Assembly: GCF_013177435.1 (NCBI RefSeq)
Contig: NZ_CP053627.1
Span: 2,610,001-2,642,000, forward strand
Direction: 5' to 3'
DNA: 32,000 nucleotides
Source of the DNA: Xylella taiwanensis
GTDB lineage: Bacteria; Pseudomonadota; Gammaproteobacteria; Xanthomonadales; Xanthomonadaceae
Below the pieces are notes generated by a model. The model saw only the letters and a program-made list of their open reading frames with translations. It made no database searches and had not been told where the DNA came from. The position numbers were made by a program, and so were the translations under genes. Each line of letters begins with the position of its first letter. The first letter of the stretch is position 1. Shown here piece by piece: positions 2,911 to 17,606 of the stretch.

Positions 2911-4409
2911 GGCAACCATCCTCCTTGGGTCATGATCTGGGTGAGGCGCGCTTCGGCGTCGCGGCAGCGGGTGAGCGCGTCCTTAAAGGCGGCAATGGCG
3001 TCGGGCAGCGGGGGGATGTCTTCTTGGAGGGGCGGCAGGACATAGCGGGAAATATTCAGGGTCCAATCTGCGGCTTTGATCTCATTGAGGCTAACCACGC
3101 GCACCGCGTCCTGTACCTCGGCATAGCCGCGATACCAGCGGAGGATCTCGGCGGCGTGTGCGGGCTCTAGATAGTTCTGAGCGCGCCCGCGGCGGAATAG
3201 CCGTGATGCATCGGCAATCAATACTTTGTTTTTATGCTTGGCCGGTTTGCGCTTGCGCAGTACCAGGATGCAGGCGGCCAGACCGGTGCCGTAGAACAGA
3301 TTGGGGGCCAGGCCAATCACCGCTTCAATCAGATCCATGTGCAACAGGGTCTGGCGGATGCGGCCTTCGACGCCTTTGCGAAACAGGGTCCCCTGGGGCA
3401 GGACCACGGCCATGCGGCCGCTGACGTCGGCCATTGAGGTGACCATGTGTTGCACCCAGGCGAAGTCGCCGCTGCTGGAGGGGGGCAGGCCGGCGAAATG
3501 GCGGCCAAAGGGGTCGTGCAACCACAGCTCTTCGCCCCACTTTTTGAGGGAGAACGGCGGATTGGCAATGACGCAATCGAAGGTGGCCAGGCGGTCGCCT
3601 TCGAAGAAGGCCGGGGCGCGCAGGGTGTCGCCGCGGACAATGTGGAAGTCTTCGATGCCATGCAGAAACAGGTTCATCCGTGCAATGGATGAGGTGGTGA
3701 GGTTCTTTTCTTGCCCGTAGAGTTTTCCCCAGAGTCTTTTTACATCGCCCTGCTGTTGTTGGACGTGCTGCATGGCCGCCAGGAGCATGCCGCCGGTACC
3801 GCAAGCCGGGTCGTAAATGGTGTCGGTGTCCTTGGGATCAAGGATATCGATCATCAACCGCACGACGCTGCGGGGGGTATAGAACTCACCGGCCTTTTTA
3901 TTGGTGGCGTCGGCAAATTTTTTGATGAGGTATTCATAGGCATCGCCAAGCAGGTCGGAATGGATGTTGTTGTTGCCAAACGACAACGTGGAGAAATGCT
4001 CGATCAGGTCTTTGAGGAGTGCATCGGAAAGGCGCTCTTTGTTTGACCATTGGGCATCGCCGAAAACGCCATACAGGGTTTCCGGGTTGGCCTTTTCGAT
4101 TTCGCGCATGGCGCGCTGTAGTGCGGTACCGACATCGGTGGCCTTGGTGCGCACGTCGTTCCAGTGGCAGTCGTCCGGAATCTGGAAGCGGTGCGACTCT
4201 GGGAACCAGGACAGTTGTTCATCGCCGGTCTCATCGATGATCTCTTGGTACTCCTCGTCCCAGACATCGCAGATGCGCTTGAAGAACAGCAACGGGAAGA
4301 TGTAGGTCTTGAAGTCTGCTGCATCCACCGGGCCGCGCAGGATGTTGGCGGATTCCCAAAGGTGACTTTCTAGCTGGCTCAGGGTGATGTGCTGGTCGCT
4401 CACCGGCAT
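2907..4409 (-). CDS. hsdM: Type I R-M N6-adenine DNA methyltransferase subunit, first paralog
   Basis: 500-aa ORF with LWESANILRG...YIFPLLFFKRICDVWDEE, GEFYTPRSVV, DPACGTGGML and NPPFSLKKW. GAGGA SD lies 5 nt before the ATG. Confidence 0.92.
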   Translation of the reverse strand: MPVSDQHITLSQLESHLWESANILRGPVDAADFKTYIFPLLFFKRICDVWDEEYQEIIDETGDEQLSWFPESHRFQIPDDCHWNDVRTKATDVGTALQRAMREIEKANPETLYGVFGDAQWSNKERLSDALLKDLIEHFSTLSFGNNNIHSDLLGDAYEYLIKKFADATNKKAGEFYTPRSVVRLMIDILDPKDTDTIYDPACGTGGMLLAAMQHVQQQQGDVKRLWGKLYGQEKNLTTSSIARMNLFLHGIEDFHIVRGDTLRAPAFFEGDRLATFDCVIANPPFSLKKWGEELWLHDPFGRHFAGLPPSSSGDFAWVQHMVTSMADVSGRMAVVLPQGTLFRKGVEGRIRQTLLHMDLIEAVIGLAPNLFYGTGLAACILVLRKRKPAKHKNKVLIADASRLFRRGRAQNYLEPAHAAEILRWYRGYAEVQDAVRVVSLNEIKAADWTLNISRYVLPPLQEDIPPLPDAIAAFKDALTRCRDAEARLTQIMTQGGWLP

Positions 4410-4477
4410 GGTGGTCCTCTAGCAATGCCGGCGTACGGCGGCATCTGGGTGTGTTTGGTCTGCATCGGTGACTCGAA

Positions 4478-4825
4478 TCACCGCTGTTGTTTGACGATGT
4501 CGCGCACCGGCTGCTTTGGGTTTCCCAATACGCCTGCGGCGGCCAGGGGCTGCAACCATACCTTGGCCTGGACGTTTGAGACGTTCCGTGCGGCGGCTAC
4601 GTCGAGGTTTTGCAGCAGCGCCAGCAAGCGTTACTGAATGGCGGCACGCAGCGCTGCAAATCATACGTCAGCCGGGGATGATCCTAGCTGTAGCGACGCG
4701 GTGATCTGGTGTGGGGGGTGGCGCCGCTTCTGGTATAGCTGGCGACGATGCCAACGGGACAATTGATTCCGGACGCGAGCGCTTGGGTAGCGACACGTTG
4801 ATGGTATTGCATGGCCAAAATCGCC
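4478..4825 (-). pseudogene. Decayed small HTH (XRE-like) gene upstream of the hsd operon
   Basis: One reverse frame stays protein-like for about 115 codons: ...ARVRNQLSRWHRRQLYQKRRHPPHQITASLQLGSSPADV*FAALRAAIQ*RLLALLQNLDVAAARNVSNVQAKVWLQPLAAAGVLGNPKQPVRDIVKQQR*. It has no start codon and two in-frame stops (4661-4663 TGA, 4631-4633 TAA). QLSRW..R...P.....L...LG.S..D resembles helix 3 and the flank of XRE-type HTH domains. Confidence 0.3.
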
Positions 4826-5190
4826 TCATTAAGATGCGACACGCATCACATTACTCCACACCATGAAATTGCTTGCTGCATCGGTCGTAATGAGGCGCTT
4901 GGCTGTGGTGCATCGTGGCAAGGACACATTTTGCAGAAAGGGAGGTCTTCGCATGAAACCAGGCTTACTGCTGACAACACAGACCCGGGTGTGCTGCGCG
5001 GTGCATCGTGATTGCGCCGTGCCTGGAAGCGGCGCGGCAACAACGCATGGTTGTCCAGAGAAACCAGCCCGCTTTGATGGTGTTGTATTTTCAAGATCAC
5101 CGCATCGCCGGGCGCATCATCGGCGGCAAGCGGCGAATCTTTTTGAGGTTTCGAGGCAAATATCCCAAACATGTGATTCACATCGTTTAC

Positions 5191-5252
5191 GTTGTTTCTG
5201 AGTCGAAATGCCGATGTGTTGCATCCCATCAGGTTTTAAATGGAATTTAAAA
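5191..5252 (+). repeat. Conserved leader, copy A (precedes paralog 1)
   Basis: gttgtttctgagtcgaaatgcc...cccatcaggttttaaatggaatttaaaa-ATG. It shares the GTTGTTTC.ACGTC.AAA block and the CA.CA.G.TTTAAATGGAG.TCAA-ATGAAAAGAGTCTGGACATTATT block with copies at 7256 and 9038, and partly with the copy at 6225. Confidence 0.8.
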
Positions 5253-6143
5253 ATGAAAAGAGTCTGGACATTATTCATGGTGTCTGTGTTGTTTATGGCT
5301 CAATCCGTCTCTGCGGTGGCGCCGGAGTCAGAAGAGGATCGGTTTTATACCACAGCCATAGAAGTGCCCTGCCCCGGAGAGGATTTTGCAGCGTTTCTTG
5401 AAAAGTTCTCCAATGATGCAAGCATCCAGCGGGAATTCACCGAATACCCGCTGAAAAAACAGGCACTGGATCTGTCCGCCGCGCCAGAGGTGAGGAAAAT
5501 CATAAAATACTTGGAAAGCAATCAAATTCAGCACCCCGTATTGCCTTTGCGTGCCGAACGGGAGAAGAAATCGCTGAATATTACCAAGATTCGTCCAAGA
5601 TATTTAAATGAAACCAGGAGAGCGATCTTAACCAAACCTGGCAAGGATGATTTAATGGTGTACGAATTTGTTAAGAATGGTTGCTGGCATTTGTCGTCCA
5701 TTGATGATCGCTCGCTCACGGGCGGAAATCCAAAGCTGCATTGGGCGGATCATATTTTCCCAGCGATGGATGATTGCACCCCATATCATTTTTATTTCGA
5801 TGAAAAATCCAAGCGTTCCAGCAATGGCGTATTGGAACGTAAGGGGTATTCTCCTTATAAAGTTGATGCATCTTTTGCACGATATAAAGTGCATGAAAAA
5901 TTTATGGGCCTGGATGCCACGGAGATTGCGATCCCATCCAACAGCAACACACACGCTATGTATATGGTGGCGGTGCCGGTCAGCGTACAACGTCTTGCGG
6001 CGGCGGTGGAAACAAGCACCGGGCATCGCTTGGCGATTGCCCCACCAACATTCGAATCCCCATCCGGAGTGGCTTACCTTGTAGAGGCAGGGGAACACAC
6101 ATCGAGTGTTGTTTGCAGAGTTAATGATCAAGGAGGATTTTAA
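5253..6143 (+). CDS. Secreted two-domain protein, long form of the local paralog family (NTF2-like N-domain guess plus unknown C-domain)
   Basis: Track ORF 5208..6143. ATG 5253 is preferred because all four paralogs begin MKRV(W/L)TLF at that point. Sec signal MKRVWTLFMVSVLFMAQSVSA|VAP. Shared module CPGEDFAAFLEKFSNDASIQREFTEYPL...VKNGCWHLSSID. Extra C-terminal domain of about 150 aa ends DQGGF. Confidence 0.75.
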   Translation: MKRVWTLFMVSVLFMAQSVSAVAPESEEDRFYTTAIEVPCPGEDFAAFLEKFSNDASIQREFTEYPLKKQALDLSAAPEVRKIIKYLESNQIQHPVLPLRAEREKKSLNITKIRPRYLNETRRAILTKPGKDDLMVYEFVKNGCWHLSSIDDRSLTGGNPKLHWADHIFPAMDDCTPYHFYFDEKSKRSSNGVLERKGYSPYKVDASFARYKVHEKFMGLDATEIAIPSNSNTHAMYMVAVPVSVQRLAAAVETSTGHRLAIAPPTFESPSGVAYLVEAGEHTSSVVCRVNDQGGF

Positions 6144-6145
6144 TC

Positions 6146-6286
6146 ATGCTCATTCCCCACCCTAGCCCCGATGTCCGCTCTGGCTCTGGCGCCAGGGAGC
6201 GGCCAACGCAAGGCGCTTCCACTGGTTTGCAATGCTCACGTCTCTGCGTTTTATCGCACCAAGCTTTAAATGGAGCTCGAACATGA
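6146..6286 (+). pseudogene. Short ORF or 5' stub resembling the N-terminus of an M23 peptidase gene
   Basis: ATG lies 2 nt after the paralog-1 stop, with AAGGAGGA 8 nt upstream. MLIPHPSPDVRSGSGARERPTQGASTGLQC... Homologous to the stub at 7156, with many differences silent. G.G..RERP aligns with TGNYRETRPGKPPHGGID of the M23-RTX protein. Ends in an ATGA overlap with the paralog-2 start. Confidence 0.3.
6225..6282 (+). repeat. Conserved leader, copy B (more diverged; precedes paralog 2)
   Basis: gtttgcaatgctcacgtctctgcgttttatcgcaccaagctttaaatggagctcgaac-ATG. The 3' half matches the other leaders. Confidence 0.6.
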
Positions 6287-7153
6287 AAAGAGTCTGGACA
6301 TTATTCGTAGTGTCTGTGTTGTTTCTGGCGCACCCCGTCGCTGCGGTAGGGCCTGCTCCACAAGCACATCAAATGCACGCCGCAGCCGTGCCGAGTGTGT
6401 CCTGTCCTGGAGAAGATTTTTCATCGTTTTTCAAGAAATTCTCCGATGATGAAAACATCCAACGGGCTTTCACCCAGTCTCTGCTGAGAATAAAGGAATT
6501 GGATCTGTCTGCGGCACCAGAAGTAAAGAAAGTGGTCAAACACTTAAGACACGATCAAATCCAGTTCCCCGTGTTTCCTTTGCGCGCCGAACGGGAAAAG
6601 AAATCATTGGAGATTATCAGTAGAAATTTAAATGAAAGAATATTAATTCAGCCAGGAAAGGATTATTTAATGGCGTACAAATTTGTTAAGAATGGCTGTT
6701 GGTATTTGTCGTCTATCGATAATCAATCGTTCACTGGTGGCCATCCCACACTACATATGGGTGGATAATATTTTCCCATCCATGGAGGATTGTATGCCAA
6801 ATGATTTTTATTGGGACCCGCAATCTAAGCGCACCAGCAATGGTGTTTTAGAACGCAAAGGATATTCTCCTTATAAGATCGAGGAATATCTTGCAAGGTA
6901 CAAAGTACATGAAAAGTTTATGGGCTTGGATGCCACGGAAATCGCGATTCCATCCAACACATATCCAATTTATATGGTCACGACACCAGTGAGTGCAAAG
7001 CGTCTTGCCGCTGCGATTAAAAAAAGAACCGGCTATCAGTTGGCCATTGCCACCCCAACGTTCAAATCTCAATCCGGGGTAGCCTACCTTGTAGAGGAAG
7101 GGAAAAACAAATCGAGTGTTGTGTGCATTACTGACGAAGAAGGAGGATTTTAA
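6283..7153 (+). pseudogene. Long-form paralog 2, interrupted by a 1-nt frameshift near 6755-6757
   Basis: Track ORFs 6232..6768 and 6683..7153 together align end to end with the 5253..6143 protein. The intact copy reads GGNPKLHWADHIFPAMDD. This copy reads GGHPTLHMGG* in frame 1 and ..HYIWVDNIFPSMED in the next frame. Removing one base from ctacatAtgggtg restores LHWVDNIFP. Confidence 0.8.
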
Positions 7154-7155
7154 TC

Positions 7156-7230
7156 ATGCCTATTTACAACCCCGGCCCTGATTTTCGCCCAGGCTCTGGT
7201 TATGGTTCTAGGGAGAGGCCTATTCAATGA
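7156..7230 (+). pseudogene. Second 5' stub resembling an M23 peptidase N-terminus
   Basis: Same geometry as 6146: AAGGAGGA, 8 nt, then ATG 2 nt after the stop. MPIYNPGPDFRPGSGYGSRERPIQ*. The TGA sits where the 6146 copy has GGC, and homology continues after it (VSRCLQC versus ASTGLQC). Confidence 0.3.
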
Positions 7231-7255
7231 GTTTCCAGATGTTTGCAATGTTGCT

Positions 7256-7316
7256 GTTGTTTCTACGTCGAAACGTTAATACGTTTTATCCCATCAGGTT
7301 TTAAATGGAGTTCAAC
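7256..7316 (+). repeat. Conserved leader, copy C (precedes paralog 3)
   Basis: gttgtttctacgtcgaaacgttaatacgttttatcccatcaggttttaaatggagttcaac-ATG. Confidence 0.8.
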
Positions 7317-7781
7317 ATGAAAAGAGTCTTGACATTATTGATGGTGTCTGTGTTGTTTATGGCTCACACCGTTTATGCGGTGGCACCTGGCGCACAGGAA
7401 AACCAATTGCACACTTCAGCGACACCGAGTGTGCCCTGTCCCGGAAAGGATTTTGCATCGTTTCTTGAAAAATTCTCTAATGACGAAAATATCCAGCGGG
7501 CTTTTACCAAGTATCCACTTACAGAATATCAAGTTGATGTTACTGCTGAGCCAGAACCAAAACAATTCAAGCGAATACTGCAACGCTGGCAAATTCAATT
7601 CCCCGTCATGCCACTGCGCCAGGAGCGCAGCAAGGTCCCCTTAAACATTGAAGTACTTACACTCACCTCAAACAAAGCACACATTCGTTTAGTCAAGCAA
7701 GACACGGATTATCAAATTTCCTATTTCTTCAGAAAAAAAGGCCGTTGGAAACTTGTCAAGATTGACAATGAATCACTTTAA
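7317..7781 (+). CDS. Secreted short-form paralog 3 (shared N-domain only)
   Basis: Track ORF 7305..7781. MKRV start at 7317 with GGAG 6 nt upstream. Signal MKRVLTLLMVSVLFMAHTVYA|VAP. CPGKDFASFLEKFSNDENIQRAFTKYPL...YFFRKKGRWKLVKIDNESL. Roughly 80% identical to the 9100..9564 protein by my hand alignment. Confidence 0.8.
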   Translation: MKRVLTLLMVSVLFMAHTVYAVAPGAQENQLHTSATPSVPCPGKDFASFLEKFSNDENIQRAFTKYPLTEYQVDVTAEPEPKQFKRILQRWQIQFPVMPLRQERSKVPLNIEVLTLTSNKAHIRLVKQDTDYQISYFFRKKGRWKLVKIDNESL

Positions 7782-7887
7782 ATACATCAGGCGCTCTTAA
7801 GGGAGATGGAAACATGGTCCTTATAGAGCACACCATTCATGGCGAAAATAAAAGTCACGCTGTAAAAACAAATCAATTGGAGTATTC

Positions 7888-8363
7888 ATGATGTTAACAA
7901 GCGCGTTTCATCCCCGTATGGCTGTGCTGCTGGCGGTGATTGCTTTTGGAGTTTTTTCGAGCGTCCATGCAGGTCATCCACACACCCCACCGATCAAGGG
8001 TTCACACATGATAGCCGACGAAAACAGAGAATATGCCGAACAGATGTTTAAGGAATATCCCAAGCTTTTCCCAAAAGAAAGGCGGTCATCGATATTACAT
8101 GGGATTATATTAATAGGGATGACGCCTTTTGAAGCAAAATTAGCCGGAGGTGCTTTTTTTATAAGGTGAGTGCCGACAGAACCCGATGGCCGGAACATAG
8201 CGACCCGATGGATGTGATGTGGGGGCAATCGATAAAACCAGATCATAGTGAAATCTGGATGACGTTTAAAAACGCGTATCAGTTCCCTGATGAAGGCGAG
8301 GTGCCATTTCGGGTGTATTTCAAGCAAGGGCACGCGGTCAAGATAGAGAAGCTGGAGCCGTAA
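7888..8363 (+). pseudogene. Small exported protein (BamE/SmpA-OmlA-like guess) split at a T7 homopolymer
   Basis: ORF 7888..8169 has the signal MAVLLAVIAFGVFSSVHA|GHP and ends AFFIR* right after T7 (8154-8160). ORF 8166..8363 (GTG, no signal) continues in the +1 frame. T8 or T5 would give one protein of about 158 aa: ...IGMTPFEAKLAGGAFFYKVSADRTRWPE...EIWMTF...VPFRVYFKQGHAVKIEKLEP. Confidence 0.55.
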
Positions 8364-8364
8364 T

Positions 8365-8943
8365 ATGTCAAGGAAAATAGTCAAGCGTTGTATCTTGTTT
8401 CTCCTGGGCACGTTATTCCTGGGGGTTGTCGTCTTGTTGATTTACTGGTTTGGTCCTGATTTTAGGGGCAATGACCCAAGTGAACCACGCATTACATTAG
8501 CTTTTGACCCTAAAAAAGTGGGAGAAACGTATTCATTCGACGTGAATCTCCTCGAGCCAGTGACTTGCGATTTGAGTCTAAGATTTTACATTGTCGCTCT
8601 AAATAAATGGTCTTATCTTCTTGATAAATACCCAGGCCCTCAAGAAGAAGACCGTTTTTATAAAATCGTGGGGAACAAGGAACTGAATAATGATAATGAG
8701 CCAAGAATGCCTGTAAAGTTGCGGGTGCAAATTATACAACAGGCAGACAACAAAATACTTCTGGATGAAGTGGTGGCTTATCCCGAAAGTTCATCGGCAT
8801 ACATGGGAAGAAATGCCACTTTGTTCGACAAAACGCTCCAGGCTGGAAGATATACCATCCGCATCGACTATCTGGAAGGCGCGCCTGAACTCGCACCGTT
8901 CCCCGCTGAAATATGGTTTAGCCGAGCCTACACTGGAAAATAA
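8365..8943 (+). CDS. N-terminally membrane-anchored protein of unknown function
   Basis: 192-aa ORF whose ATG lies 1 nt after the preceding stop. One hydrophobic helix (CILFLLGTLFLGVVVLLIYWF) is followed by a beta-rich soluble part. No motif I can name. Confidence 0.7.
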   Translation: MSRKIVKRCILFLLGTLFLGVVVLLIYWFGPDFRGNDPSEPRITLAFDPKKVGETYSFDVNLLEPVTCDLSLRFYIVALNKWSYLLDKYPGPQEEDRFYKIVGNKELNNDNEPRMPVKLRVQIIQQADNKILLDEVVAYPESSSAYMGRNATLFDKTLQAGRYTIRIDYLEGAPELAPFPAEIWFSRAYTGK

Positions 8944-8952
8944 GGAGATTAC

Positions 8953-9027
8953 ATGTATACCGTAACGATTAATATTGCTGCCCCAGGAACAAGGCTTAAT
9001 AATGCTGGTGATGGCACCCTTGATTAG
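8953..9027 (+). other. 24-codon ORF with a strong Shine-Dalgarno; status unknown
   Basis: AAGGAG, 6 nt, ATG. MYTVTINIAAPGTRLNNAGDGTLD*. It occupies the same kind of slot as the stubs at 6146 and 7156 (after a cassette gene, before the next leader) but is not obviously homologous to them. Confidence 0.2.
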
Positions 9028-9037
9028 CACTATTGAT

Positions 9038-9099
9038 GTTGTTTCCACGTCCAAATATCTATGTATTTAATCTCACCAAGTTTTAAATGGAGTTCAAAA
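9038..9099 (+). repeat. Conserved leader, copy D (precedes paralog 4)
   Basis: gttgtttccacgtccaaatatctatgtatttaatctcaccaagttttaaatggagttcaaaa-ATG. Confidence 0.8.
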
Positions 9100-9564
9100 A
9101 TGAAAAGAGTCTGGACATTATTCACAATATCTTTGTTTTTCACGGCTCAAACCGTCTATGCGGTACCACCTGATGCACAGGCAAATCAATTGCATCACTC
9201 AGCCGTACCAAATGTGCCCTGTCCCGGAAAGGATTTTGTATCGTTTCTTGAAAAATTCTCCAATGACGAAAATATCCAGCGAGCTTTCACCACATATCCG
9301 CTGATACAAGATGAATATGATACTACTGCTGAGCCCGAACCAAAAGAATTCCGGCGAATTCTGCAGCGTGAACAGATTCAATTCCCCGTCATGCCACTGA
9401 GCCAAGAGCGCAGCAAGGTACCCTTAAACATTGAAGTCCTTAAACTCACCTCAAACAAAGCACACATTCGTTTATTCAAGGAAGACACTGATTATCAAAT
9501 TTCCTATTTCTTCAGAAAAAAGGGCTGTTGGAAACTTGTCAAAATTCACAATCAATCACTTTAG
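9100..9564 (+). CDS. Secreted short-form paralog 4, immediately upstream of the M23-RTX gene
   Basis: Track ORF 9061..9564, with the MKRV start at 9100. Signal MKRVWTLFTISLFFTAQTVYA|VPP. CPGKDFVSFLEKFSNDENIQRAFTTYPL...FFRKKGCWKLVKIHNQSL. Stop lies 20 nt before the ATG at 9585. Confidence 0.8.
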   Translation: MKRVWTLFTISLFFTAQTVYAVPPDAQANQLHHSAVPNVPCPGKDFVSFLEKFSNDENIQRAFTTYPLIQDEYDTTAEPEPKEFRRILQREQIQFPVMPLSQERSKVPLNIEVLKLTSNKAHIRLFKEDTDYQISYFFRKKGCWKLVKIHNQSL

Positions 9565-9584
9565 ATAAACTAAGGACACATTAA

Positions 9585-12500
9585 ATGAACTTTAATGACG
9601 TAATGAACAGGATGCTTCCACCACAAGACGGAACACCACCTCATGTGACCGGAAATTATCGAGAAACCAGACCCGGGAAACCACCGCATGGCGGCATTGA
9701 TTTTAATTATCAGGGGGGACAAACCGGTATTAATCTGACTCATCCAACAATCTACTCACCGATCAGCGGTACGGTGACATTCGTTGGCGGACAATTTGCA
9801 ACGATCAAAATTCGAGATGCAGATGGCAACAGTCATGAAATTCTCCATACACATTCTCAAGCGGTCACGGTGGGGCAACAGATCAATGCTGGGGACCCCA
9901 TAGGCACCATGGGGGGCCGTGGGCCAAACGGTATCAATGAATTCGCCCAGCACGTGCATTACCAAATGAAAGACCCACAAGGGCGCCGTATTAATCCACA
10001 AGATTGGTGGGACAACGGAGGTAGTGGTATTCGTGGTAGCGACAGCGCTGGCCACTCAAACCACGGGACAGGCGCGGCGGGCGGCCCCGGGGCGGGCGGC
10101 GCCAGTGTCAGCAAACGGAATACGTACCTGGCGCCCCGCGATCCGCTGGCGTTGGATTTGGACGGTGACGGCATCGAAACCACTAGTACGCAAGATGGCA
10201 CGCAGAATGGCCGCGTCATCCTGTTTGACCACGATGGTGATGGCGTCAAGACGGGCACTGGCTGGGTGAAGCCCGATGATGGCTGGCTGGTGCTGGACCG
10301 CGATGGCAACGGGACGATTGATTCCGGGCGCGAGCTCTTCGGTATCGACACGCTGAAACGCAACGGGCAACGAGCCACGGACGGTTTTGATGCGTTGCGC
10401 GATGAGGATAGCAACCAGGATGGCACGATCGACGCGGCCGACAGTGTGTTTGCGCATCTGCGGATTTGGCGTGATCTGAATCAAGACGGCGTCAGCCAGG
10501 CTAACGAACTCAGTACGCTGGCGGATAACAAGATCATTTCGATTGGGGTCAATGCGACAGCAGGGCGTATTGATCTAGGTCACGGCAATGTACAAACGGC
10601 GACGGGGACGTTTACCCGCTCTAACGGCACCACGGGTACCGCCAACCCCAGCAATGGCACCGCCGCCAATCTGGATGTGCTAGCCGATACGTTTTACCGG
10701 GATTTCACGCAACGGGTGGCGCTGACGGATCAAGCCAAGGCGCTTCCCTTTTTGCGCGGGTCTGGGCGGGTCCGCGACTTGGACGAGGCGATCAGTCTGT
10801 CTAGCGATCTGGGCAACTGGGTGCAGGCTTACAGTGAGCAAACCACGCGGCAAGCGCAGCTTGAGCGGTTGGATGGTTTGATGGAGCGATGGGTCAACAC
10901 CTCTGACATGAAGTCTCTGCAGGCGCAAGCCGATGCACTGAAACGCAATGGCGTTACGCTGACTTACGTGCTGTCTGGATTAGCGCCGGGAACAGCGGCC
11001 TATGAGGATTTTTTGCGCAAGCTGGGCATTGTGGAGCGCTTGATGGGCTTCACGTATGGCGGTCGTCAGGGGGAGGCGCGTTTTACGCCATTGGATGCGG
11101 CGTCCGGCAAGATGACGGTGACGTTGTCGGATGCGCAGGTGACTAACATTGCATTGGCGTATGAGCGCTTCAAAACAGATATTTATGAATCGCTGTTGCT
11201 GACAACCAGGCTGGCGCCCATCTACACCCTGGCGGAGATGAATTTTGTCAATGGCGCATGGGTCACGGACTGGAGTGGCGTAGAACAGGCGCTCAAACAG
11301 GGGATTCAACGCAATCCACGTGAGGGAATACTGGATGCCATTGAGTTTGTCAGTGCACTGGGATACAAGACCGCCGCAGAGATGGGCTGGGATGGGATCG
11401 GCTTCCTCACCGACCAACTCAATGCGACCCCGGAGTTGGGAGCGTTCATTAAGGAATCAAGCAGTTGGACGGTGATCTTTGCCGCCGCCAACGAACATTA
11501 CCTTCCTGGCACCTTGGGCTCGGATTTGCTGGTGGGCACATCAGGTGATGACAGCATCATAGGAGAGCAAGGCAACGACGTATTTATTGGTAAAGGCGGG
11601 AACGATACCTTCGACGGCGGCAGCGGGAACGACACCTACGAGTTCGCCATTGGTTCCGGCGTGGATCGCATCTACGAGCAAGACTCCACCGCAGGCAACA
11701 CGGATGTGGTGAGGTTTGCCGATGTTGCGTCCACCGCGCTCACCGCGCTGGAGCGCAAGGGGAATGATCTGGTGATCAAGTACGGCGCCAACGATCAATT
11801 AACCATAAACAACTACTTCATTGCTCCAGACTATAAGGTCGAGCAATTCAAATTCAGTGATGGGGTGACCTGGGATGACGTCGCGATCAAAATGCACGCC
11901 ATCACCAAGGGCGACGCCAGCAACAACTTCATCCTCGGCTACAACGACGGCAGCAACCGCATCTACGGCCTGGAGGGTGACGACATCATCTACGGTGGCG
12001 CACTGGCCGACACTTTGGACGGGGGGACCGGCAATGACACCCTCAACGGCGGTGCCGGTAACGATATCTATCAGTTCGCCATCGGTTCCGGCGTGGATCG
12101 CATCGAAGACTACGGAGGCAACACGGACGTGGTGAGGTTTGCCGATGTCGCCTCCACCGCGCTGACCGCGCTGGAACGTAAGGACAATGACCTGGTGATT
12201 AAGTACGGCGCCAGCGACCAACTGACAGTCAGCGGTTATTTCTACCCCGGGGACTCGGGCGCCAAGATCGAGCAGTTTAAATTCAGCGATGGCGTCACCT
12301 GGGATGAAACCGCGATCAAAGCGCGTGTCATCACCAAGGGCGACGCCAACAACAACACGATATTAGGCTACAACGACGGCAGCAACCGTATCTATGGCTG
12401 GGACGGCAACGACGCCATCTACGGTGGCGCACTGGCCGACACGCTGTACGGCGGCGCAGGCAACGACATGCTCAGCGGCAACAGCGGTGCGGACCTCCTG

Positions 12501-14066
12501 GATGGCGGGACCGGTAACGACGTGCTCAATGGCGGCAGCGGTAACGATATCTATCAGTTCGCCATCGGTGCCGGCGTGGATCGCATTGAAGACTGCGACA
12601 GCACCGCAAGCAACACGGACGTGGTGAGGTTTGCCGATGTCGCCTCTACCGCGCTGACTGCGCTGGAGCGCAAGGGGAATGACCTGGTGATCAGGTACGG
12701 CAGCAGCGACCAACTGACCGTAAGCGAGTATTTCAACCCCAACACTTCAAGCTATAAGGTCGAGCAGTTCGCGTTCAGCGATGGTGTGACCTGGGATGAC
12801 GCCGCGATCAAAGCGCGCGTCATCACCAACGGCGATGCCTACAACAATTACATCGTCGGTTACAACGACGGCAACAACCGTATCTATGGCCTGGATGGTA
12901 ACGACGAGATCTACGGCGGCACCCTCGCCGATACGCTGTACGGCGGCGATGGGTTTGACACGTTGATCGGCAATGGGGGGGATGACACCTTGCTTGGCGG
13001 TGCCGGCAATGACGTGCTCGGCGGCAACAGCGGTGCGGACCTGCTGGACGGCGGGACCGGTAATGACACGCTATACGGTGACGCAGGCAATGACATCTTG
13101 GATGGCGGCACCGGTAACGATGTGCTCGACGGCGGCAGCGGCAACGATACCTACAGGTTCGCCAGCGGTTCCGGGGTGGATCGCATCGAAGACTACGACA
13201 CCACCGCAGGCAACAGCGACGTGGTGAGGTTTGCCGATGTCGCCTCCACCGCGCTGACTGCGCTGGAGCGCAAGGGGAATGACCTGGTGATCAGGTACGG
13301 CAGCAGCGACCAACTGACTGTGAGCAATTATTTCAACCCCTACACCTCAGGCTACAAGGTCGAGCAGTTCATGTTCAGCGATGGTGTGACCTGGGATGAC
13401 GCCGCGATCAAAGCACGTGTTATCACCAAGGGCGATGTCAACAACAACTATATCGTCGGCTATAACGACGGCAACAACCGTATCTATGGCCTGGACGGCA
13501 ACGATGAGATCTACGGTGGTGCATTGGCCGATACGCTGTACGGCGGCAATGGTAATGATGTGCTCAGCGGTGGCAGTGGTGCGGACCTGCTGGACGGCGG
13601 GACCGGCAATGACACGCTACACGGTGACGCAGGTAATGACATCTTGGATGGCGGCACCGGCAATGATGTGCTCGACGGTGGCAGCGGCAACGATACCTAC
13701 AGGTTCGCCAGCGGTGCCGGGGTGGATCGCATCTACGATTACGACACTACTGCGGGCAATACCGATGTGGTTTGCATCGGCCCAGGGGTGACAACCGATC
13801 AGCTTTGGTTCCGGCATGTTGGTGCCGATCTGGAAGTCAGCATCATGGGTACGAGCGATCAGATCACGATCAGCAATTGGTACTCCGATGCTGCATATCA
13901 TGTCGAGCAGTTCAAGACATCCGATGGCAAGGTGTTGCTTGATGGTGAAGTCAATGCGCTGGTCTCAGCGATGGCGGCCTTTGCGCCGCCAGCACTTGGA
14001 CACATGTCGTTGTCTGTCGATGAACAGAAGGCGTTACATCCGGTGATTGCTGCGCACTGGAAGTAA
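9585..14066 (+). CDS. Large RTX (T1SS-substrate-type) calcium-binding protein with N-terminal M23/LytM peptidase domain; bacteriocin-like
   Basis: 1493-aa ORF with AAGGA 9 nt upstream. M23 ligand motifs appear in order: TGNYRETRPGKPPH35GGID39F, LHTHS, QH123VH125YQ. Then a Gly-rich linker, PLALDLDGDGIET..FDHDGDG..LDRDGNGTIDSGRELFG, and a helical region. Five modules of GGxGxD nonapeptides follow, alternating with HCBP-related segments (VVRFADVASTALTALERKGNDLVI.YG..DQLT..NYF...YKVEQF.FSDGVTWD). No N-terminal signal peptide. Confidence 0.95.
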   Translation: MNFNDVMNRMLPPQDGTPPHVTGNYRETRPGKPPHGGIDFNYQGGQTGINLTHPTIYSPISGTVTFVGGQFATIKIRDADGNSHEILHTHSQAVTVGQQINAGDPIGTMGGRGPNGINEFAQHVHYQMKDPQGRRINPQDWWDNGGSGIRGSDSAGHSNHGTGAAGGPGAGGASVSKRNTYLAPRDPLALDLDGDGIETTSTQDGTQNGRVILFDHDGDGVKTGTGWVKPDDGWLVLDRDGNGTIDSGRELFGIDTLKRNGQRATDGFDALRDEDSNQDGTIDAADSVFAHLRIWRDLNQDGVSQANELSTLADNKIISIGVNATAGRIDLGHGNVQTATGTFTRSNGTTGTANPSNGTAANLDVLADTFYRDFTQRVALTDQAKALPFLRGSGRVRDLDEAISLSSDLGNWVQAYSEQTTRQAQLERLDGLMERWVNTSDMKSLQAQADALKRNGVTLTYVLSGLAPGTAAYEDFLRKLGIVERLMGFTYGGRQGEARFTPLDAASGKMTVTLSDAQVTNIALAYERFKTDIYESLLLTTRLAPIYTLAEMNFVNGAWVTDWSGVEQALKQGIQRNPREGILDAIEFVSALGYKTAAEMGWDGIGFLTDQLNATPELGAFIKESSSWTVIFAAANEHYLPGTLGSDLLVGTSGDDSIIGEQGNDVFIGKGGNDTFDGGSGNDTYEFAIGSGVDRIYEQDSTAGNTDVVRFADVASTALTALERKGNDLVIKYGANDQLTINNYFIAPDYKVEQFKFSDGVTWDDVAIKMHAITKGDASNNFILGYNDGSNRIYGLEGDDIIYGGALADTLDGGTGNDTLNGGAGNDIYQFAIGSGVDRIEDYGGNTDVVRFADVASTALTALERKDNDLVIKYGASDQLTVSGYFYPGDSGAKIEQFKFSDGVTWDETAIKARVITKGDANNNTILGYNDGSNRIYGWDGNDAIYGGALADTLYGGAGNDMLSGNSGADLLDGGTGNDVLNGGSGNDIYQFAIGAGVDRIEDCDSTASNTDVVRFADVASTALTALERKGNDLVIRYGSSDQLTVSEYFNPNTSSYKVEQFAFSDGVTWDDAAIKARVITNGDAYNNYIVGYNDGNNRIYGLDGNDEIYGGTLADTLYGGDGFDTLIGNGGDDTLLGGAGNDVLGGNSGADLLDGGTGNDTLYGDAGNDILDGGTGNDVLDGGSGNDTYRFASGSGVDRIEDYDTTAGNSDVVRFADVASTALTALERKGNDLVIRYGSSDQLTVSNYFNPYTSGYKVEQFMFSDGVTWDDAAIKARVITKGDVNNNYIVGYNDGNNRIYGLDGNDEIYGGALADTLYGGNGNDVLSGGSGADLLDGGTGNDTLHGDAGNDILDGGTGNDVLDGGSGNDTYRFASGAGVDRIYDYDTTAGNTDVVCIGPGVTTDQLWFRHVGADLEVSIMGTSDQITISNWYSDAAYHVEQFKTSDGKVLLDGEVNALVSAMAAFAPPALGHMSLSVDEQKALHPVIAAHWK
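11706..13765 (+). repeat. Intragenic tandem coding repeats of the RTX gene (periods about 423, 492, 600, 545 nt)
   Basis: gtggtgaggtttgccgatgt recurs at 11706, 12129, 12621 and 13221, with a diverged fifth unit from 13766. Units 3 and 4 are over 90% identical at DNA level by eye. Length differences come from added or lost GGxGxD nonapeptides. Confidence 0.9.
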
Positions 14067-14086
14067 GCATCCTGGATTTAGTCGCT

Positions 14087-14121
14087 GCACCCCGCTCAGA
14101 AACGCTTTCTGGATGGGGTGC
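14087..14121 (+). terminator. Stem-loop 20 nt after the RTX stop (terminator-like, no T-tract)
   Basis: GCACCCC-gct-CAGAAA-cgc-TTTCTG-gat-GGGGTGC. It has 7-bp outer and 6-bp inner stems and is followed by gggagggttc rather than a U-run. Confidence 0.4.
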
Positions 14122-14329
14122 GGGAGGGTTCATATTGATGCAGGGAACAACAGGCACACCCCTCACAACGGCAGGATTGATCCGGATGTGATGGGTGTGG
14201 CGTCTTCATCCATGGCCAGAAGCGGACCGTTTCACAAGGAAGGTTGACGCTGGTCTGACCCGTTGAGTGGTGATGGGCTGTTTGCAACGATGTGTTGCAC
14301 GACGATGCAGCAGCATTGTTGATGACATG

Positions 14330-15460
14330 GGGCAAAGATGGTGCGAACGGAACGATGGCCGTATGAGGTGCGTTCTTCCTTGCCGGGCTGTCGTTAAGGC
14401 GTTTCCACCGGGTCAACGGCACGGGTGATCATATGGATGTTGCTGAGTTTTGCTGCGCTGGAATTGGTGTGGGCGGTGTTCGGTGATGTCAATGTCTTAG
14501 TCATTGTCCAGACCAGGTGATAGCAACGGCTACATCAAGCACATCCAGCCTTTTGAAATAGCCGCGGTCCAATGTGCGCTTATCAGCGGCAGGCACCTGA
14601 GAGGTGTTGTTTGGGCTCAACAAGGTCGCGCCTTACGCCGGAAAAGATTGTGATGCACATGAGCTGAGCTGCGGTTCGTCATGGTCTGCGATCAAGCGAT
14701 GCTTGTCGCTATCGGCACAGGGGGTGTACCCAAGGGGCACTGCCAGAGCAGGTGAGGGACATGCAGTGTGTGGAAGCGAGACGCGCAGGGTACTGGCAGG
14801 ATCAGGAATGTAATCACTTCTCTGAACCAAGACGCAGCCATGCTGAGGTGACGAGGCGAAACGCTGCATTGTGTTTCACGCTGGAGCTAGTGTGAACACT
14901 GCAACAGACCATGCCGATTGCTCAACAGCAAACCAAAGATTTCAAGCCTCTGGTCACTCGACACGTGATATCCGGGTATGGTGCTTTGAAGCGGGAACAC
15001 GCGTGCATCGGATCACCAGCGAACAATGATCCGAAGGAAAGAGAAGCCACATTTCATGAAGCGCAGCCCGGGAGCAACGCTAGGCACTCAGGACCAAGAC
15101 GTGCCAGGTAACGCTCGACCGCATCGGCAATGGCTCGCAACAGCAGGCAAGGCTGGAGCAGGAGGATGTGAAGGTCAATGCGCCAGGCAAGTGGATGCGC
15201 TTGGGTTCAATGGTCTATGGGACTGTGGCACAGATGGTCGTGTATACGATTGGCGGCGTGGCCATATCCATCAGCGTTGACGATGATTGCTCCAAGCGGC
15301 ACGCCGCTCAGTTGCAGTCATCATCCTCTCCACCCAGCAACCCCAATGTGGTGCAAAGCAGGCATGGTTTAGGTGTATTTCCACATAGAAACAGAATAGA
15401 AAAGGCGCCATCCCGATCCAAAGGCATCCAGATCATGGATGACCATAAGTTACGTTGAGA
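14330..15460 (+). pseudogene. Decayed HlyD-family T1SS membrane-fusion protein gene
   Basis: Fragments in shifting frames follow HlyD order. 14434: WMLLSFAALELVWAVFGDVNVLV (TM helix plus G.V...). 14516: GDSNGYIKHIQPFEIAAVQ (K.IQP.E...V). About 14930: FKPLVTRHVIS. 15216: YGTVAQMVVYTIGGVAIS (G.V..l.V.T.GGVv) then ISVDDD. 15355: AGMV*V.F.IETE (GM.v...I.TG). There are several stops and frameshifts and an apparent internal deletion. Confidence 0.5.
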
Positions 15461-16148
15461 TCGGGTTGGCCGTTGCCGCTATGGTGTTACGCGGCGAGCC
15501 GAGCATCGATACAGCGATGTTCTAAAAGTCACGGGCTAAGCCTTCGGGAAGCAACGCTCCACTGCTGACGCAGCTGCAGAACGTCCAAGAAGAATAACCG
15601 CTATCACTCATTGTCACTCTGAGACGGCGTCATGGGTATCACCAAGAAAAGCATATTGTCCTCGGTACGACGCGCCAGGCTTGCGCATTAAGGAAACGTA
15701 TGACACAACGCAAAGCTGCAAGCAGTGACGCGCTTGCCGAGTGTCTGCGGGCTGCGATGAACCACCATCAGCCCTGCAGCTTGGAGGCATATGCTGTACT
15801 TGCGGAAGGTCAAAGATCACTCGCACGTGTCCTGCATCATCATGGGGTCGCGTCCTCACGAGCACATGGATCGTCAAACATTACAAGCCCATGCACATCA
15901 TATGGAAAACGTCAGCGACACATGCAAACGGCGCGGTATGGGTTCTGTATAACGGCTGCTGATCGCTGCGCCGCTCTATTTACACGGGCAAAAGATATTG
16001 GGAAATGACTCTGAAAGACGCTAAGGGAATATCAGATAGCTTTGACGCAGTCTTCAATCAATGCTGCTTGGGTTTCCGCGAGTCAGTATCCCTAATCGAC
16101 GGTTGGGGGCCAAGCACGCAGTGTACCGACCCCCACCACCACAGGACC

Positions 16149-16910
16149 TCAGTTGCGGGACTGAAGGTTGGACAGCAAACGCAAGCATTCAAGGTACAAC
16201 CACACCAACGTGACCATCAGGCCGAATGCACCATACCACTCCATGTACTTTGGTGCTCCGCGCTCGACACCGCTCTCAATGAAGTCAAAATCCAACACTA
16301 AGTTCAATGCGGCGATCACAACCACAAACAGGCTGAACACGATACCGAAAGTACTCGCTTCATGGAGCATTGGTATGCGTATCCCAAAGAAGCTTAATCC
16401 GAATGAGATCAGATAGAGTAAAGCGATACCACCTGTGGCAGCCGCGACGCCGAGCTTGAAATTCTCTGTAACCTTGATGAAACCACTACGATACGCCAGC
16501 AACATTGCTAGTAATACACTGAAGGTGAGTAGCACCGCTTGGAATACGATTCCACCAAGACGCGCTTCGTACACTGCTGAGATTGCACCGAGGAAAAATC
16601 CCTCTACAAGTGCGTACAGCGGTGCGGTGATGGGTGACCACTCTTTTTTGAAAACAGTGATCAGCGCTAGCACCAAACCACCGATCGCTCCAGCAATCAT
16701 ATAGCCACGCGCCGCTAGCACTGGTATGCCATCGACCCCAAGCGACTGATTCCAAGCAAAGACGGAAGTGACCAGCGCTAACAGCAGCAGTGCTCCAGTC
16801 TTGTTGACGGTGCCGTTTAAAGTCATCGCGTTACCGTCGCGGACGACAACCGAGCCAGTACCCAGATCAAGGAAGGTGGACTCCTTAAGAGCAGGATTTC
16901 CGCTACGCAT
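16149..16910 (-). CDS. Bax inhibitor-1/YccA family integral membrane protein
   Basis: 253-aa ORF with N-terminus MRSGNPALKESTF and about 7 hydrophobic helices. Matches my memory of BaxI_1-type (PF12811-like) proteins. Confidence 0.8.
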   Translation of the reverse strand: MRSGNPALKESTFLDLGTGSVVVRDGNAMTLNGTVNKTGALLLLALVTSVFAWNQSLGVDGIPVLAARGYMIAGAIGGLVLALITVFKKEWSPITAPLYALVEGFFLGAISAVYEARLGGIVFQAVLLTFSVLLAMLLAYRSGFIKVTENFKLGVAAATGGIALLYLISFGLSFFGIRIPMLHEASTFGIVFSLFVVVIAALNLVLDFDFIESGVERGAPKYMEWYGAFGLMVTLVWLYLECLRLLSNLQSRN

Positions 16911-17083: not shown

Positions 17084-17160
17084 CGGGGTATAGCGCAGTC
17101 TGGCAGCGCACCTGCTTTGGGAGCAGGGTGTCGGGGGTTCAAATCCCTCTACCCCGACCA
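17084..17160 (+). tRNA. tRNA-Pro (anticodon TGG)
   Basis: Hand-folded cloverleaf: acceptor CGGGGTA/TACCCCG, anticodon stem CCTGC/GCAGG with loop TTTGGGA, T-arm GGGGG-TTCAAAT-CCCTC, encoded CCA. 77 nt. Confidence 0.9.
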
Positions 17161-17234
17161 TGTTGCTTAGCTATGTATGGTTGGTATGCATGGTGGGTAA
17201 ATGTGGGTAAGTAAGGTGGGGGCTCCAGTTCCAA

Positions 17235-17313
17235 GCGCCCGTAGCTCAATCGGAATTAGAGCACCGGCCTTCTAAGCCGGCGGTTACAGGTTCGAGTCCT
17301 GTCGGGTGCGCCA
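17235..17313 (+). tRNA. tRNA-Arg (anticodon TCT)
   Basis: Acceptor GCGCCCG/CGGGTGC, anticodon stem CCGGC/GCCGG with loop CTTCTAA, T-arm ACAGG-TTCGAGT-CCTGT, encoded CCA. 79 nt with a long D-loop. Confidence 0.88.
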
Positions 17314-17351
17314 TAGAAGCGCGAACGTGGCAGGTAGATAGCAGTTTCAAT

Positions 17352-17429
17352 GGTGGCTGTAGCTCAGTTGGTTAGAGTACTGGATTGTGATTCCAGTTGT
17401 CGGGGGTTCGAATCCCCTCAGCCACCCCA
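17352..17429 (+). tRNA. tRNA-His (anticodon GTG)
   Basis: Extra G-1 opposite discriminator C. Acceptor GTGGCTG/CAGCCAC, anticodon stem CTGGA/TCCAG with loop TTGTGAT, T-arm GGGGG-TTCGAAT-CCCCT, encoded CCA. Confidence 0.9.
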
Positions 17430-17530
17430 CTGAACGCATTGAACCGAAACATCAGCGTTGGGTTTGCTTCTCAGTCTGTTGCATCAGCAACAAAGTATAC
17501 TATCATGGTGTAGCATCTTGATCGATTTTC

Positions 17531-17606
17531 GGGCCGTTAGCTCAGTTGGTAGAGCAGTTGACTCTTAATCAATAGGTCCAAGGTTCGAATCCTTGACGGC
17601 CCACCA
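17531..17606 (+). tRNA. tRNA-Lys (anticodon CTT)
   Basis: Acceptor GGGCCGT/ACGGCCC, anticodon stem GTTGA/TCAAT with loop CTCTTAA, T-arm CAAGG-TTCGAAT-CCTTG, encoded CCA. 76 nt. Confidence 0.9.

Follow-up and report, generated by a model that had tools for sequence, protein, structure and literature searches.

Why should a bacterium place a cell-wall peptidase at the head of a large calcium-binding RTX protein, and where would such an enzyme act? The question is raised by a 32,000-nucleotide stretch of Xylella taiwanensis DNA (NCBI RefSeq assembly GCF_013177435.1, contig NZ_CP053627.1, positions 2,610,001 to 2,642,000 of the forward strand; hereafter the window, whose own numbering is used throughout), in which an open reading frame (ORF) at 9585-14066 (+) encodes a protein of 1493 aa from an ATG start. 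The original prediction, made by a model from the sequence and its ORFs, had delimited this ORF correctly and described its product as an M23 peptidase in stable fusion with a scaffold of the type I secretion kind. Our analysis points to a less static arrangement. We consider it probable that the protein is a type-I-secreted, FrpC-like RTX carrier of an exchangeable N-terminal antibacterial toxin, accompanied by immunity genes.

The self-processing module (SPM) is central to this proposal. The segment that follows the Gly-rich linker and begins RD-PLALDLDGDGIET... had been taken for generic D-x-D-G-D-G calcium loops, and it is instead the start of an SPM of the type found in FrpC of Neisseria meningitidis. 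The match to the solved FrpC module is strong (PDB 6sjw, E = 3.8e-43; 6sjx, E = 9.7e-43) and aligns Asp186-Pro187 (10140-10145, +), the predicted Ca2+-dependent autocleavage site, exactly on FrpC D414-P415. The module itself spans aa 187-352 (10143-10640, +). With residue roles taken from the FrpC work (PMC7078468), its four Ca2+ sites comprise an incomplete EF-hand (D191/D193/D195/G196 with D232) and three EF-hand-like sites (D238...E250; D275/N277/D279; D297/N299/D301/E308), and its Trp pair W227/W295 is the counterpart of FrpC W451/W519. Membership of the family was judged from the PDB sequence together with an alignment of 97 sequences, PF26745 having been seen only in precomputed annotations. 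The window SPM agrees with this alignment at all positions conserved to at least 90%; Asp-Pro is invariant there by construction, that motif being the selection criterion. In FrpC, Ca2+ binding leads to autocatalytic Asp-Pro cleavage, and the new C-terminal Asp can be linked to lysine in a 'clip-and-link' reaction (PMC3034196, PMC7078468); all SPM homologues tested underwent cleavage (PMC12538545). Because the window module matches FrpC and Asp186-Pro187 falls on the scissile bond, the M23 domain would, by analogy, most likely be clipped off by extracellular Ca2+. A stable fusion is thus improbable, and the warhead is predicted to be cut off after export.

The predicted cargo, aa 1-145 (9585-10019, +; G+C content at third codon positions, GC3, 0.455), is an M23 peptidoglycan endopeptidase domain as judged by Pfam, key residues and predicted fold. 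The public record of the protein, WP_114867199.1, is named 'peptidoglycan DD-metalloendopeptidase family protein / calcium-binding protein', and the M23 identity is therefore already in the NCBI annotation. The hidden Markov model match that had been proposed as a check on the original prediction is significant and nearly full length: PF01551 (Peptidase_M23) covers aa 34-138 with E = 3.3e-12 and 46.9 bits, against a gathering score of 28.7, over positions 2-96 of the 96 in the profile. The zinc-binding and catalytic residues are H35-x3-D39, the central H88 and H123-x-H125, the numbering given earlier for the first and last of these being correct. Across 25 aligned subfamily members H35, D39, H88 and H123 never vary, and H125 is kept in at least 90%. 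The central conserved His of the solved M23 enzyme 9gy1 corresponds in alignment to H88, with which 'LHTHS' has its first His, and the HxH motif is likewise aligned with its counterpart there. An AlphaFold model built from the 25-sequence alignment reached a predicted local distance difference test (pLDDT) score of 96.6, and its best PDB matches are all M23 peptidases, namely EnpA, StM23, ShyA, LytM and lysostaphin (Foldseek probability 1.0, TM 0.6-0.75). Residues and fold together indicate a catalytically intact domain with a predicted muralytic activity, and in this sense a cell-wall-lytic mechanism at the N-terminus of an RTX/HCBP protein is indeed readable, as had been claimed. A degenerate LytM-type activator, the state seen in EnvC and NlpD, was ruled out by the intact catalytic residues. 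The N-terminus contains no hydrophobic segment (over the first 60 aa the Kyte-Doolittle mean of 15 residues reaches at most -0.29), and the protein lacks a Sec signal, again as predicted. Nine X. taiwanensis database entries keep the protein at 1473-1493 aa, partial records aside.

Directly upstream lies the gene for a candidate cognate immunity protein, 9061-9564 (+; GC3 0.399), which ends 20 nt before the M23 start codon. Databases carry its product as a 154-aa form starting at M14 (nt 9100); an exact look-up with the longer, 167-aa form of the ORF gave no entry. The protein has a Sec signal peptide, MKRVWTLFTISLFFTAQTVYA, of the signal peptidase I type, and its core is predicted to be NTF2-like/cystatin-like (AlphaFold core pLDDT >90), with the DUF4348 structure 4mjf as closest PDB match; the modelled structure thus suggests a link to DUF4348. 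A genome scan with eight close M23 sequences, the 25-sequence subfamily alignment being too variable for this use, yielded 63 loci with this M23 subfamily, mostly from Luteibacter, Dyella, Lysobacter, Stenotrophomonas and Pseudomonas. In 60 of the 63, a homologue of the 9061 protein is encoded upstream in the same orientation (of the remaining three, two have no upstream sequence), and in 32 loci it ends within 60 nt of the M23 start. Many of these homologues carry lipoprotein signals or lipoboxes. The immunity genes (X-Tfi) of the effectors (X-Tfe) of the bacteria-killing Xanthomonadales type IV system are 'usually found upstream', co-transcribed, and encode a signal peptide and lipobox (PMC6536674). 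Judged by synteny, the 9061/9100-9564 product is likely the cognate periplasmic immunity protein. The bacteriocin-like, antibacterial role suggested by the original prediction is plausible and is now backed by this conserved upstream gene. The comparison with RzcA-like bacteriocins is not needed; the closest characterised relative is FrpC.

The partners to which this M23 subfamily is joined tell a similar story. Pfam architectures among the locus representatives include M23 + PG_binding_1 + X-Tfes_XVIPCD, that is, effectors of the type IV system just mentioned, as well as SLT + M23 + PG_binding_1, M23 + Tox-PAAR-like, M23 before VgrG, and large Pseudomonas proteins. Because the same domain is joined to XVIPCD, Tox-PAAR-like, VgrG and SPM-RTX, we regard the subfamily as an inter-bacterial toxin module. 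The closest full-length relative of the window protein is L002, a 2767-aa M23 + HCBP/RTX protein from a proteobacterial metagenome-assembled genome (MAG). Its M23 part is 78% identical, it shares the Gly linker and an RRD235-P SPM start, and the order is again immunity, M23, linker, SPM and RTX. The protein-database relatives closest to aa 1-150 are short or truncated, and one Verminephrobacter eiseniae entry runs from M23 via a Gly linker into RRDPLVLDLDGDG. Two of the loci with these architectures deserve mention in their own right: in a Desulfomicrobium MAG (L053, 3423-5954) the same subfamily sits on the N-terminus of VgrG, an unusual toxin position for VgrG, and in a Pelobacter MAG (L011, 6871-8073) it precedes Tox-PAAR-like, each with an immunity-like gene upstream.

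The candidate immunity gene closes an array at 5208-9564 of immunity genes and toxin-start scars, which was absent from the original prediction. A blastp self-comparison of the window found four paralogues of the immunity-like domain: 9061-9564 itself, 7305-7781 (79% identical to the 9061 protein), 6232-6768 (52%) and the N-half of 5208-6143 (46%). The first gene of the array, 5208-6143 (+; GC3 0.487), encodes a 311-aa secreted paralogue with an extra C-terminal domain. It is a candidate orphan immunity gene of the 29x-aa type, 56-64% identical to Xylella fastidiosa g8047, g9001, g13353 and g14304; in that species a gene of this type immediately precedes the classical-M23 RTX gene. A split, frameshifted second 29x-aa copy follows at 6232-7153 (+; ORFs 6232-6768 and 6683-7153; 59% to the N-half and 65% to the C-half of the 5208 protein), and directly after it come the first 23 codons of the classical-M23 cargo, MPIYNPGPDFRPGSGYGSRERPI, as a scar (7156-7224, +; tblastn with the g15191 N-terminus, 78% identity, E = 2.6e-7). 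A second copy of the 154-aa immunity-like protein occupies 7305-7781 (+; UniRef label of P0222, 'DUF4348 domain-containing'), and 7888-8357 (+) holds a frameshifted orthologue of the secreted X. fastidiosa protein g10486 (tblastn at 7915-8166 and 8127-8357, two frames). The array continues with a DUF5625 protein that has an N-terminal hydrophobic segment and is a candidate immunity protein for another cargo (8365-8943, +; PF18539, E = 1.9e-9), and with a second scar, the first 20 codons of another SPM-RTX cargo family, MYTVTINIAAPGTRLNNAGD (8953-9012, +; P0175, X. fastidiosa g11597; tblastn 80% identity, E = 5.7e-6).

Because the 20-codon start of this non-M23 cargo follows directly in X. taiwanensis, the arrangement suggests that DUF5625 proteins provide immunity to it. 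Similar remnants occur in X. fastidiosa. There, the gene that follows the 9061 orthologue opens with MTFNDIMNRVLPAQD..., which are residues 1-20 of the M23 of X. taiwanensis type; g10486 starts MTFNDIMNRVLPAQDKSSSH, a 20-codon scar of the X-Tfe-type M23. The scars come after immunity genes in both species. Each Xylella species thus appears to keep immunity genes against the other's toxin type, a pattern like that of contact-dependent inhibition (CDI) and Rhs systems with its polarity reversed. Three smaller observations concern the array. The DUF5625 protein is present in both species (window 8365-8943; L065 10997-11581). The extra C-terminal domain of the 29x-aa paralogues (5208-6143 C-half, 6683-7153) measures ~140 aa and has no Pfam match. 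Upstream of the array, a weak SPM-like fragment, 'DANGTIDSGRERLGSDTL', at 4747-4800 (+; tblastn E = 0.007) is either an older SPM remnant or a chance match.

Comparison with X. fastidiosa indicates that the cargo, rather than the carrier, has been exchanged. At the syntenic locus of subsp. fastidiosa, in the same position by the BaxI gene, a similar array ends in a 999-aa M23 + SPM + RTX gene. The M23 of this gene belongs to a different, classical subfamily (HRGQDF...GPHLHFE), whereas its linker (HGTGAAGGPGAGGASVSKR..PRD-PLALDLDGDG) and scaffold are nearly the same as in X. taiwanensis, the linker-SPM-RTX scaffold of the X. fastidiosa copies being ~77% identical in DNA. Precomputed Pfam annotations of X. 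fastidiosa relatives list Peptidase_M23 + SPM (PF26745) + HemolysinCabind + HCBP_related. A third cargo, DUF6973, shares this linker: subsp. fastidiosa has it as a truncated orphan of 265 aa (L065 12325-13122, comprising cargo, linker and SPM start), and it heads full-length SPM-RTX proteins of 1154-1642 aa in subsp. multiplex (P0043, P0230, P0232, P0236), so that cargo differs between the X. fastidiosa subspecies as well. X. fastidiosa copies therefore carry classical M23 or DUF6973, and X. taiwanensis carries the X-Tfe-type M23. The Gly-rich linker, aa 146-185 (10020-10139, +), is the putative recombination junction and is near-identical in X. fastidiosa g15191, g12325 and P0043; blastn homology to the X. 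fastidiosa scaffold begins at nt 10039-10061, at codon ~152. GC3 changes at this place, from 0.40-0.49 in the immunity genes and 0.455 in the M23 part to 0.67-0.74 in linker, SPM and RTX (0.683 in the linker), with neighbouring housekeeping genes at 0.575-0.64.

Cargos are diverse across the SPM family. A HMMER search with the SPM gave 22,111 representative proteins with E<=0.001, of which 2,135 reached E<=1e-30. For a survey of cargos we took 93 of the best 150 SPM matches, those in which an Asp-Pro site could be recognised with 60 or more residues before it. Once the Gly-rich linker was trimmed and low complexity filtered, their N-terminal parts fell into ~55 unrelated clusters. Unrelated cargos share the same ...RRD-P junction at their end. 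Pfam recognised only Peptidase_M23 among 33 cluster representatives, RTX and TSP_3 repeats aside. Three representatives have the X-Tfe-type M23, one of them from a Magnetococcales MAG, and two have the classical M23; because two M23 subfamilies are found among the cargos, M23 domains were recruited to SPM-RTX carriers at least two times. Many SPM cargos (N-terminal parts of P0043-P0192) are Gly/Ala-rich, hydrophobic and glycine-zipper-like, none of them Pfam-recognised, and their composition suggests that they could be membrane-active toxins.

The remainder of the window protein resembles a type I substrate. Behind the SPM comes an FrpC-like middle region, aa 353-640 (10641-11504, +), which includes D364 as the probable equivalent of FrpC D579 and is 77% identical in DNA to the X. 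fastidiosa scaffold. It is followed at 11505-13784 (+) by RTX nonapeptide blocks alternating with HCBP_related modules. Pfam finds 17 HemolysinCabind stretches (E = 6e-69; a regular expression for GGxGxD gives 20 matches) and the five HCBP_related modules that had been proposed, starting at aa 705, 846, 1010, 1210 and 1392, of which the first four are near-identical and the fifth is divergent. The C-terminal tail (13785-14066, +) is presumed to be an uncleaved type I secretion signal region, and the last ~90 aa are conserved with L002. The same order of N-domain, Asp-Pro, SPM, middle region, RTX blocks and C-terminal tail is found in FrpC and FrpA of N. meningitidis and in ApxIVA of Actinobacillus pleuropneumoniae. 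The N-terminal warhead had been described as the reverse of most polymorphic toxins. Among type I substrates, serralysins and lipases for instance, it is ordinary for the enzyme to come first, with RTX repeats and a C-terminal signal behind it (PMC3034196, PMC7777525). The unusual feature is the polymorphism of the N-terminal part, not the position of the enzyme.

We propose the following course of events. The unfolded protein would exit C-terminus first via an unlinked system of ATP-binding cassette (ABC) transporter, membrane-fusion protein and TolC, and extracellular Ca2+ would then fold the RTX blocks and the SPM. If FrpC biochemistry is a guide, the SPM would cut Asp186-Pro187 and release an M23 zinc endopeptidase of ~20 kDa, ending in a reactive aspartyl anhydride that would be hydrolysed or cross-linked to a nearby amine. 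Its intact residues and fold suggest that the freed enzyme could cleave peptide cross-links in the peptidoglycan of rivals, and its synteny with the M23 gene marks the 9061/9100-9564 product as the putative periplasmic protector of the producer. Toxin and immunity gene would form a mobile cassette, grafted onto a resident linker-SPM-RTX scaffold at the Gly-rich linker. Older cassettes would be pushed upstream, leaving behind orphan immunity genes and 20-codon toxin-start scars in an arrangement that would mirror the orphan modules downstream of CDI and Rhs toxins.

Several points weigh against this scheme, beginning with the fact that we infer all four of its elements, secretion, cleavage, lysis and immunity. 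In the SPM, the column of FrpC D478 holds Ile254, which is the family-majority V/I state with Asp255 adjoining. The equivalent of the essential D579 can be placed only tentatively at D364, outside the structure-aligned region, in a column with D in 59/97 and N in 13/97 sequences; in FrpC, D579A abolishes cleavage and D579N is tolerated. Type I secretion is argued from homology: the RTX_C match of the tail is weak (E = 0.004, under the cut-off), and neither the 32 kb window nor the L002 flanks contain a gene for an ABC transporter, a membrane-fusion protein or TolC. For proteins of the FrpC type it is normal that the type I secretion genes lie elsewhere, as in N. meningitidis, and linkage is not obligatory. 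Pfam and profile searches with the immunity-like family gave nothing significant, DUF4348 and BACOVA_00961-like reaching only E = 0.04-0.9. The GC step at the linker is partly expected from the Gly/Asp-rich composition of RTX sequences, a concern that the use of GC3 lessens and does not remove. Moreover, the scheme does not explain by what route a released 20 kDa enzyme would pass the Gram-negative outer membrane, nor why a toxin that bypasses the producer's periplasm should be met by periplasmic immunity. The targets may be Gram-positive, or the RTX part may serve as a receptor or translocation part before clipping; alternatively, the enzyme may be covalently anchored via its aspartyl anhydride, or the immunity proteins may be kept mainly against M23 toxins injected by rivals.

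Could the site simply be unused? In a stable fusion, which we think improbable, the M23 domain would remain permanently tethered to an RTX targeting or adhesion part. The M23 and RTX domains are confirmed, and the non-conserved D478 column would fit such a reading; set against this are the retention of all family-invariant SPM positions (Asp-Pro, four Ca2+ sites and Trp pair), the cleavage of each homologue examined to date, and the ...RRD-P end shared by unrelated cargos, which makes sense only with the junction in use. We are equally reluctant to see the enzyme as a host- or vector-directed virulence protease that cuts Gly-rich host proteins, for example the glycine-rich proteins of the xylem wall. 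The M23 enzyme LasA cuts elastin, and some M23 enzymes cleave Gly-Gly bonds in non-peptidoglycan substrates, which makes such an activity conceivable. Xylella type I secretion (TolC) is also needed for pathogenicity (PMC4517913), and the FrpC-family SPM adds to A. pleuropneumoniae virulence (PMC7078468). A host target would nevertheless leave little purpose for a signal-peptide-bearing partner encoded upstream in nearly every locus (60/63), for the recurrence of the subfamily in type VI fusions to PAAR-like and VgrG parts and in those type IV effectors that kill bacteria and bear peptidoglycan-binding domains, or for orphan immunity arrays, which are typical of inter-bacterial conflict.

A further alternative accepts the antibacterial origin of the locus and regards it as a relic, in which X. 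taiwanensis has lost the function of the RTX gene or of its export, and the region persists chiefly as an immunity island against the M23 toxins of rivals. Pseudogenised neighbours (the toxin scars, the orthologue of g10486 with its frameshift and the split gene of the 29x-aa type) and the lack of a transporter gene in the 32 kb window speak for it. We nonetheless give it little credence: the 1493-aa ORF is intact with all catalytic and SPM residues, it is conserved in the nine X. taiwanensis entries, and the unlinked position of secretion genes is, as said, usual for this class. Much less probable still is a housekeeping cell-wall factor, either an autolysin or a dead LytM-type amidase activator like EnvC or NlpD. 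Weak NCBIfam matches to ActS and EnvC (E = 0.002-0.04) lie far below the cut-offs; the zinc-binding and catalytic residues are intact, unlike those of EnvC and NlpD; a protein without a signal peptide could not reach its own periplasm by Sec; and the domain is fused to SPM-RTX as part of a horizontally moving toxin/immunity cassette.

If the window protein is, as we favour, a carrier from which an antibacterial M23 toxin is clipped, the same might hold for its relatives. We put forward, as a speculation that may well prove wrong, that the SPM-RTX class as a whole, including FrpC, FrpA and ApxIVA, is a very large, N-terminally polymorphic type I toxin-delivery platform, in which Ca2+ both clips the toxin and arms an aspartyl anhydride for anchoring to an amine of the target envelope, with upstream immunity arrays and scars as a genomic signature that mirrors CDI and Rhs. 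Such an anchor amine could be provided by a lysine of an outer-membrane protein or by a stem peptide of peptidoglycan with its free amino group, and anhydride anchoring would account for a short-range action of a freely secreted enzyme.

The idea is partly anticipated by a hypothesis of 2019 and by the NCBI annotation. Bayer-Santos et al. described a resemblance of the Stenotrophomonas maltophilia type IV effector Smlt3024 to N-termini of 221 RTX proteins, and of Smlt3025, its immunity protein, to FrpD; FrpC/FrpD was proposed as a type I antibacterial effector/immunity pair (PMC6759196). As in our case, a toxin domain is common to type IV effectors and RTX N-termini and the immunity gene lies upstream. 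Smlt3024 has a different toxin domain of unknown mechanism, whereas a muralytic mechanism can be read from the window protein, and the SPM as a release device, cassette exchange and scars are not discussed in that study. Our search of the literature, weak evidence in that it covered open-access papers and preprints only, found beyond PMC6759196 no M23-SPM-RTX proteins, no SPM described as a toxin-release device, and no upstream immunity arrays or toxin-start scars for RTX proteins. FrpC itself likewise has a co-directional upstream gene for a secreted partner, FrpD, which binds the FrpC N-domain with a dissociation constant (Kd) of ~0.2 nM (PMC5233953). The FrpC N-domain comprises 414 aa without known activity, where the window protein has a 145-aa M23 domain and a Gly-rich linker, and FrpD and the 9061 protein are unrelated in sequence, the latter having a predicted NTF2-like fold and a signal of the signal peptidase I type rather than a lipobox.

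The X-Tfe/X-Tfi systems share more of the cargo and less of the carrier. Effectors of the M23-PGB-XVIPCD class have the same M23 subfamily (53-67% identity) and the same upstream immunity-like family, while their defining XVIPCD (PF20410), present in L003, L049 and L058, is absent from the window protein, as is PG_binding_1. Since it lacks XVIPCD, the window protein is not an X-Tfe, and its delivery would presumably be type I via SPM-RTX. Polymorphic toxins such as CDI CdiA-CT/CdiI and Rhs likewise combine a conserved scaffold, a variable toxin tip and an adjacent immunity gene (PMC3482391), and they too show orphan immunity arrays, toxin fragments and a compositional break at the junction. 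They differ in polarity, the window toxin being N-terminal with immunity genes and orphans upstream, and in release, for which HINT, caspase-like, PrsW and papain-like domains take the place of the Ca2+-triggered Asp-Pro SPM. The survey by Zhang et al. in 2012 mentions type I secretion only for large RTX toxins (PMC3482391). Serralysin and lipase also join an N-terminal hydrolase to RTX repeats and a C-terminal signal; in these proteins, however, the enzyme stays on the RTX part, no SPM is present, the proteins are not polymorphic cassettes, and their inhibitors (Inh for serralysins) are unrelated. The X. fastidiosa hemolysin-type calcium-binding proteins or RTX bacteriocins of the literature (XF2407, XF2759; PMC3034196, Table 3) could not be mapped by locus tag onto the genes compared here.

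FrpC-type RTX proteins and 'RTX bacteriocins' have gone for decades without an agreed function or mechanism. The window locus offers a readable cargo activity, a candidate immunity protein and a release predicted to the exact bond; because these three are predicted, the 2019 hypothesis of FrpC-like type I antibacterial effectors becomes testable by simple experiments. Xylella is a major group of plant pathogens, and the proposal comes with a clear, testable mechanism. To our knowledge, the genus lacks type VI secretion. X. fastidiosa also lacks type III secretion (PMC4517913). Given these absences, type I clip-off toxins may be a main weapon of Xylella against bacteria of the xylem and the insect foregut. 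Strain exclusion and biocontrol could be influenced by the differing cargos of X. taiwanensis and the subspecies of X. fastidiosa. The ~55 cargo types in 93 proteins, nearly all Pfam-unknown, point to a large untapped pool of candidate toxins, and the junctions that nature has made between cargo and SPM are of interest for NeissLock, a protein-ligation technology.

The surroundings of the locus add a few minor observations. A promoter and terminator scan of 4400-16200 returned fewer sites than shuffled sequence and none on the + strand, and is uninformative on operon structure. A stretch of ~1.5 kb that follows the RTX gene, 14521-16032, lacks ORFs of at least 120 aa and is without a blastn counterpart at the X. 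fastidiosa locus, which is collinear in other respects. On the other side, the low-GC island is flanked by a type I restriction-modification unit at 237-4409 (-), made up of tandem HsdM genes (1384-2919, 2907-4409) and HsdS (237-1391), where X. fastidiosa has Wadjet-like genes instead (SbcC_Walker_B, DUF3322, JetD_C). Four tRNA genes (Pro-TGG, Arg-TCT, His-GTG, Lys-CTT), the only elements detected in an Rfam scan of the window, stand at 17084-17606 (+), after the BaxI gene and ~3 kb downstream of the RTX gene, and this cluster beside a toxin/immunity island is a possible integration hotspot.

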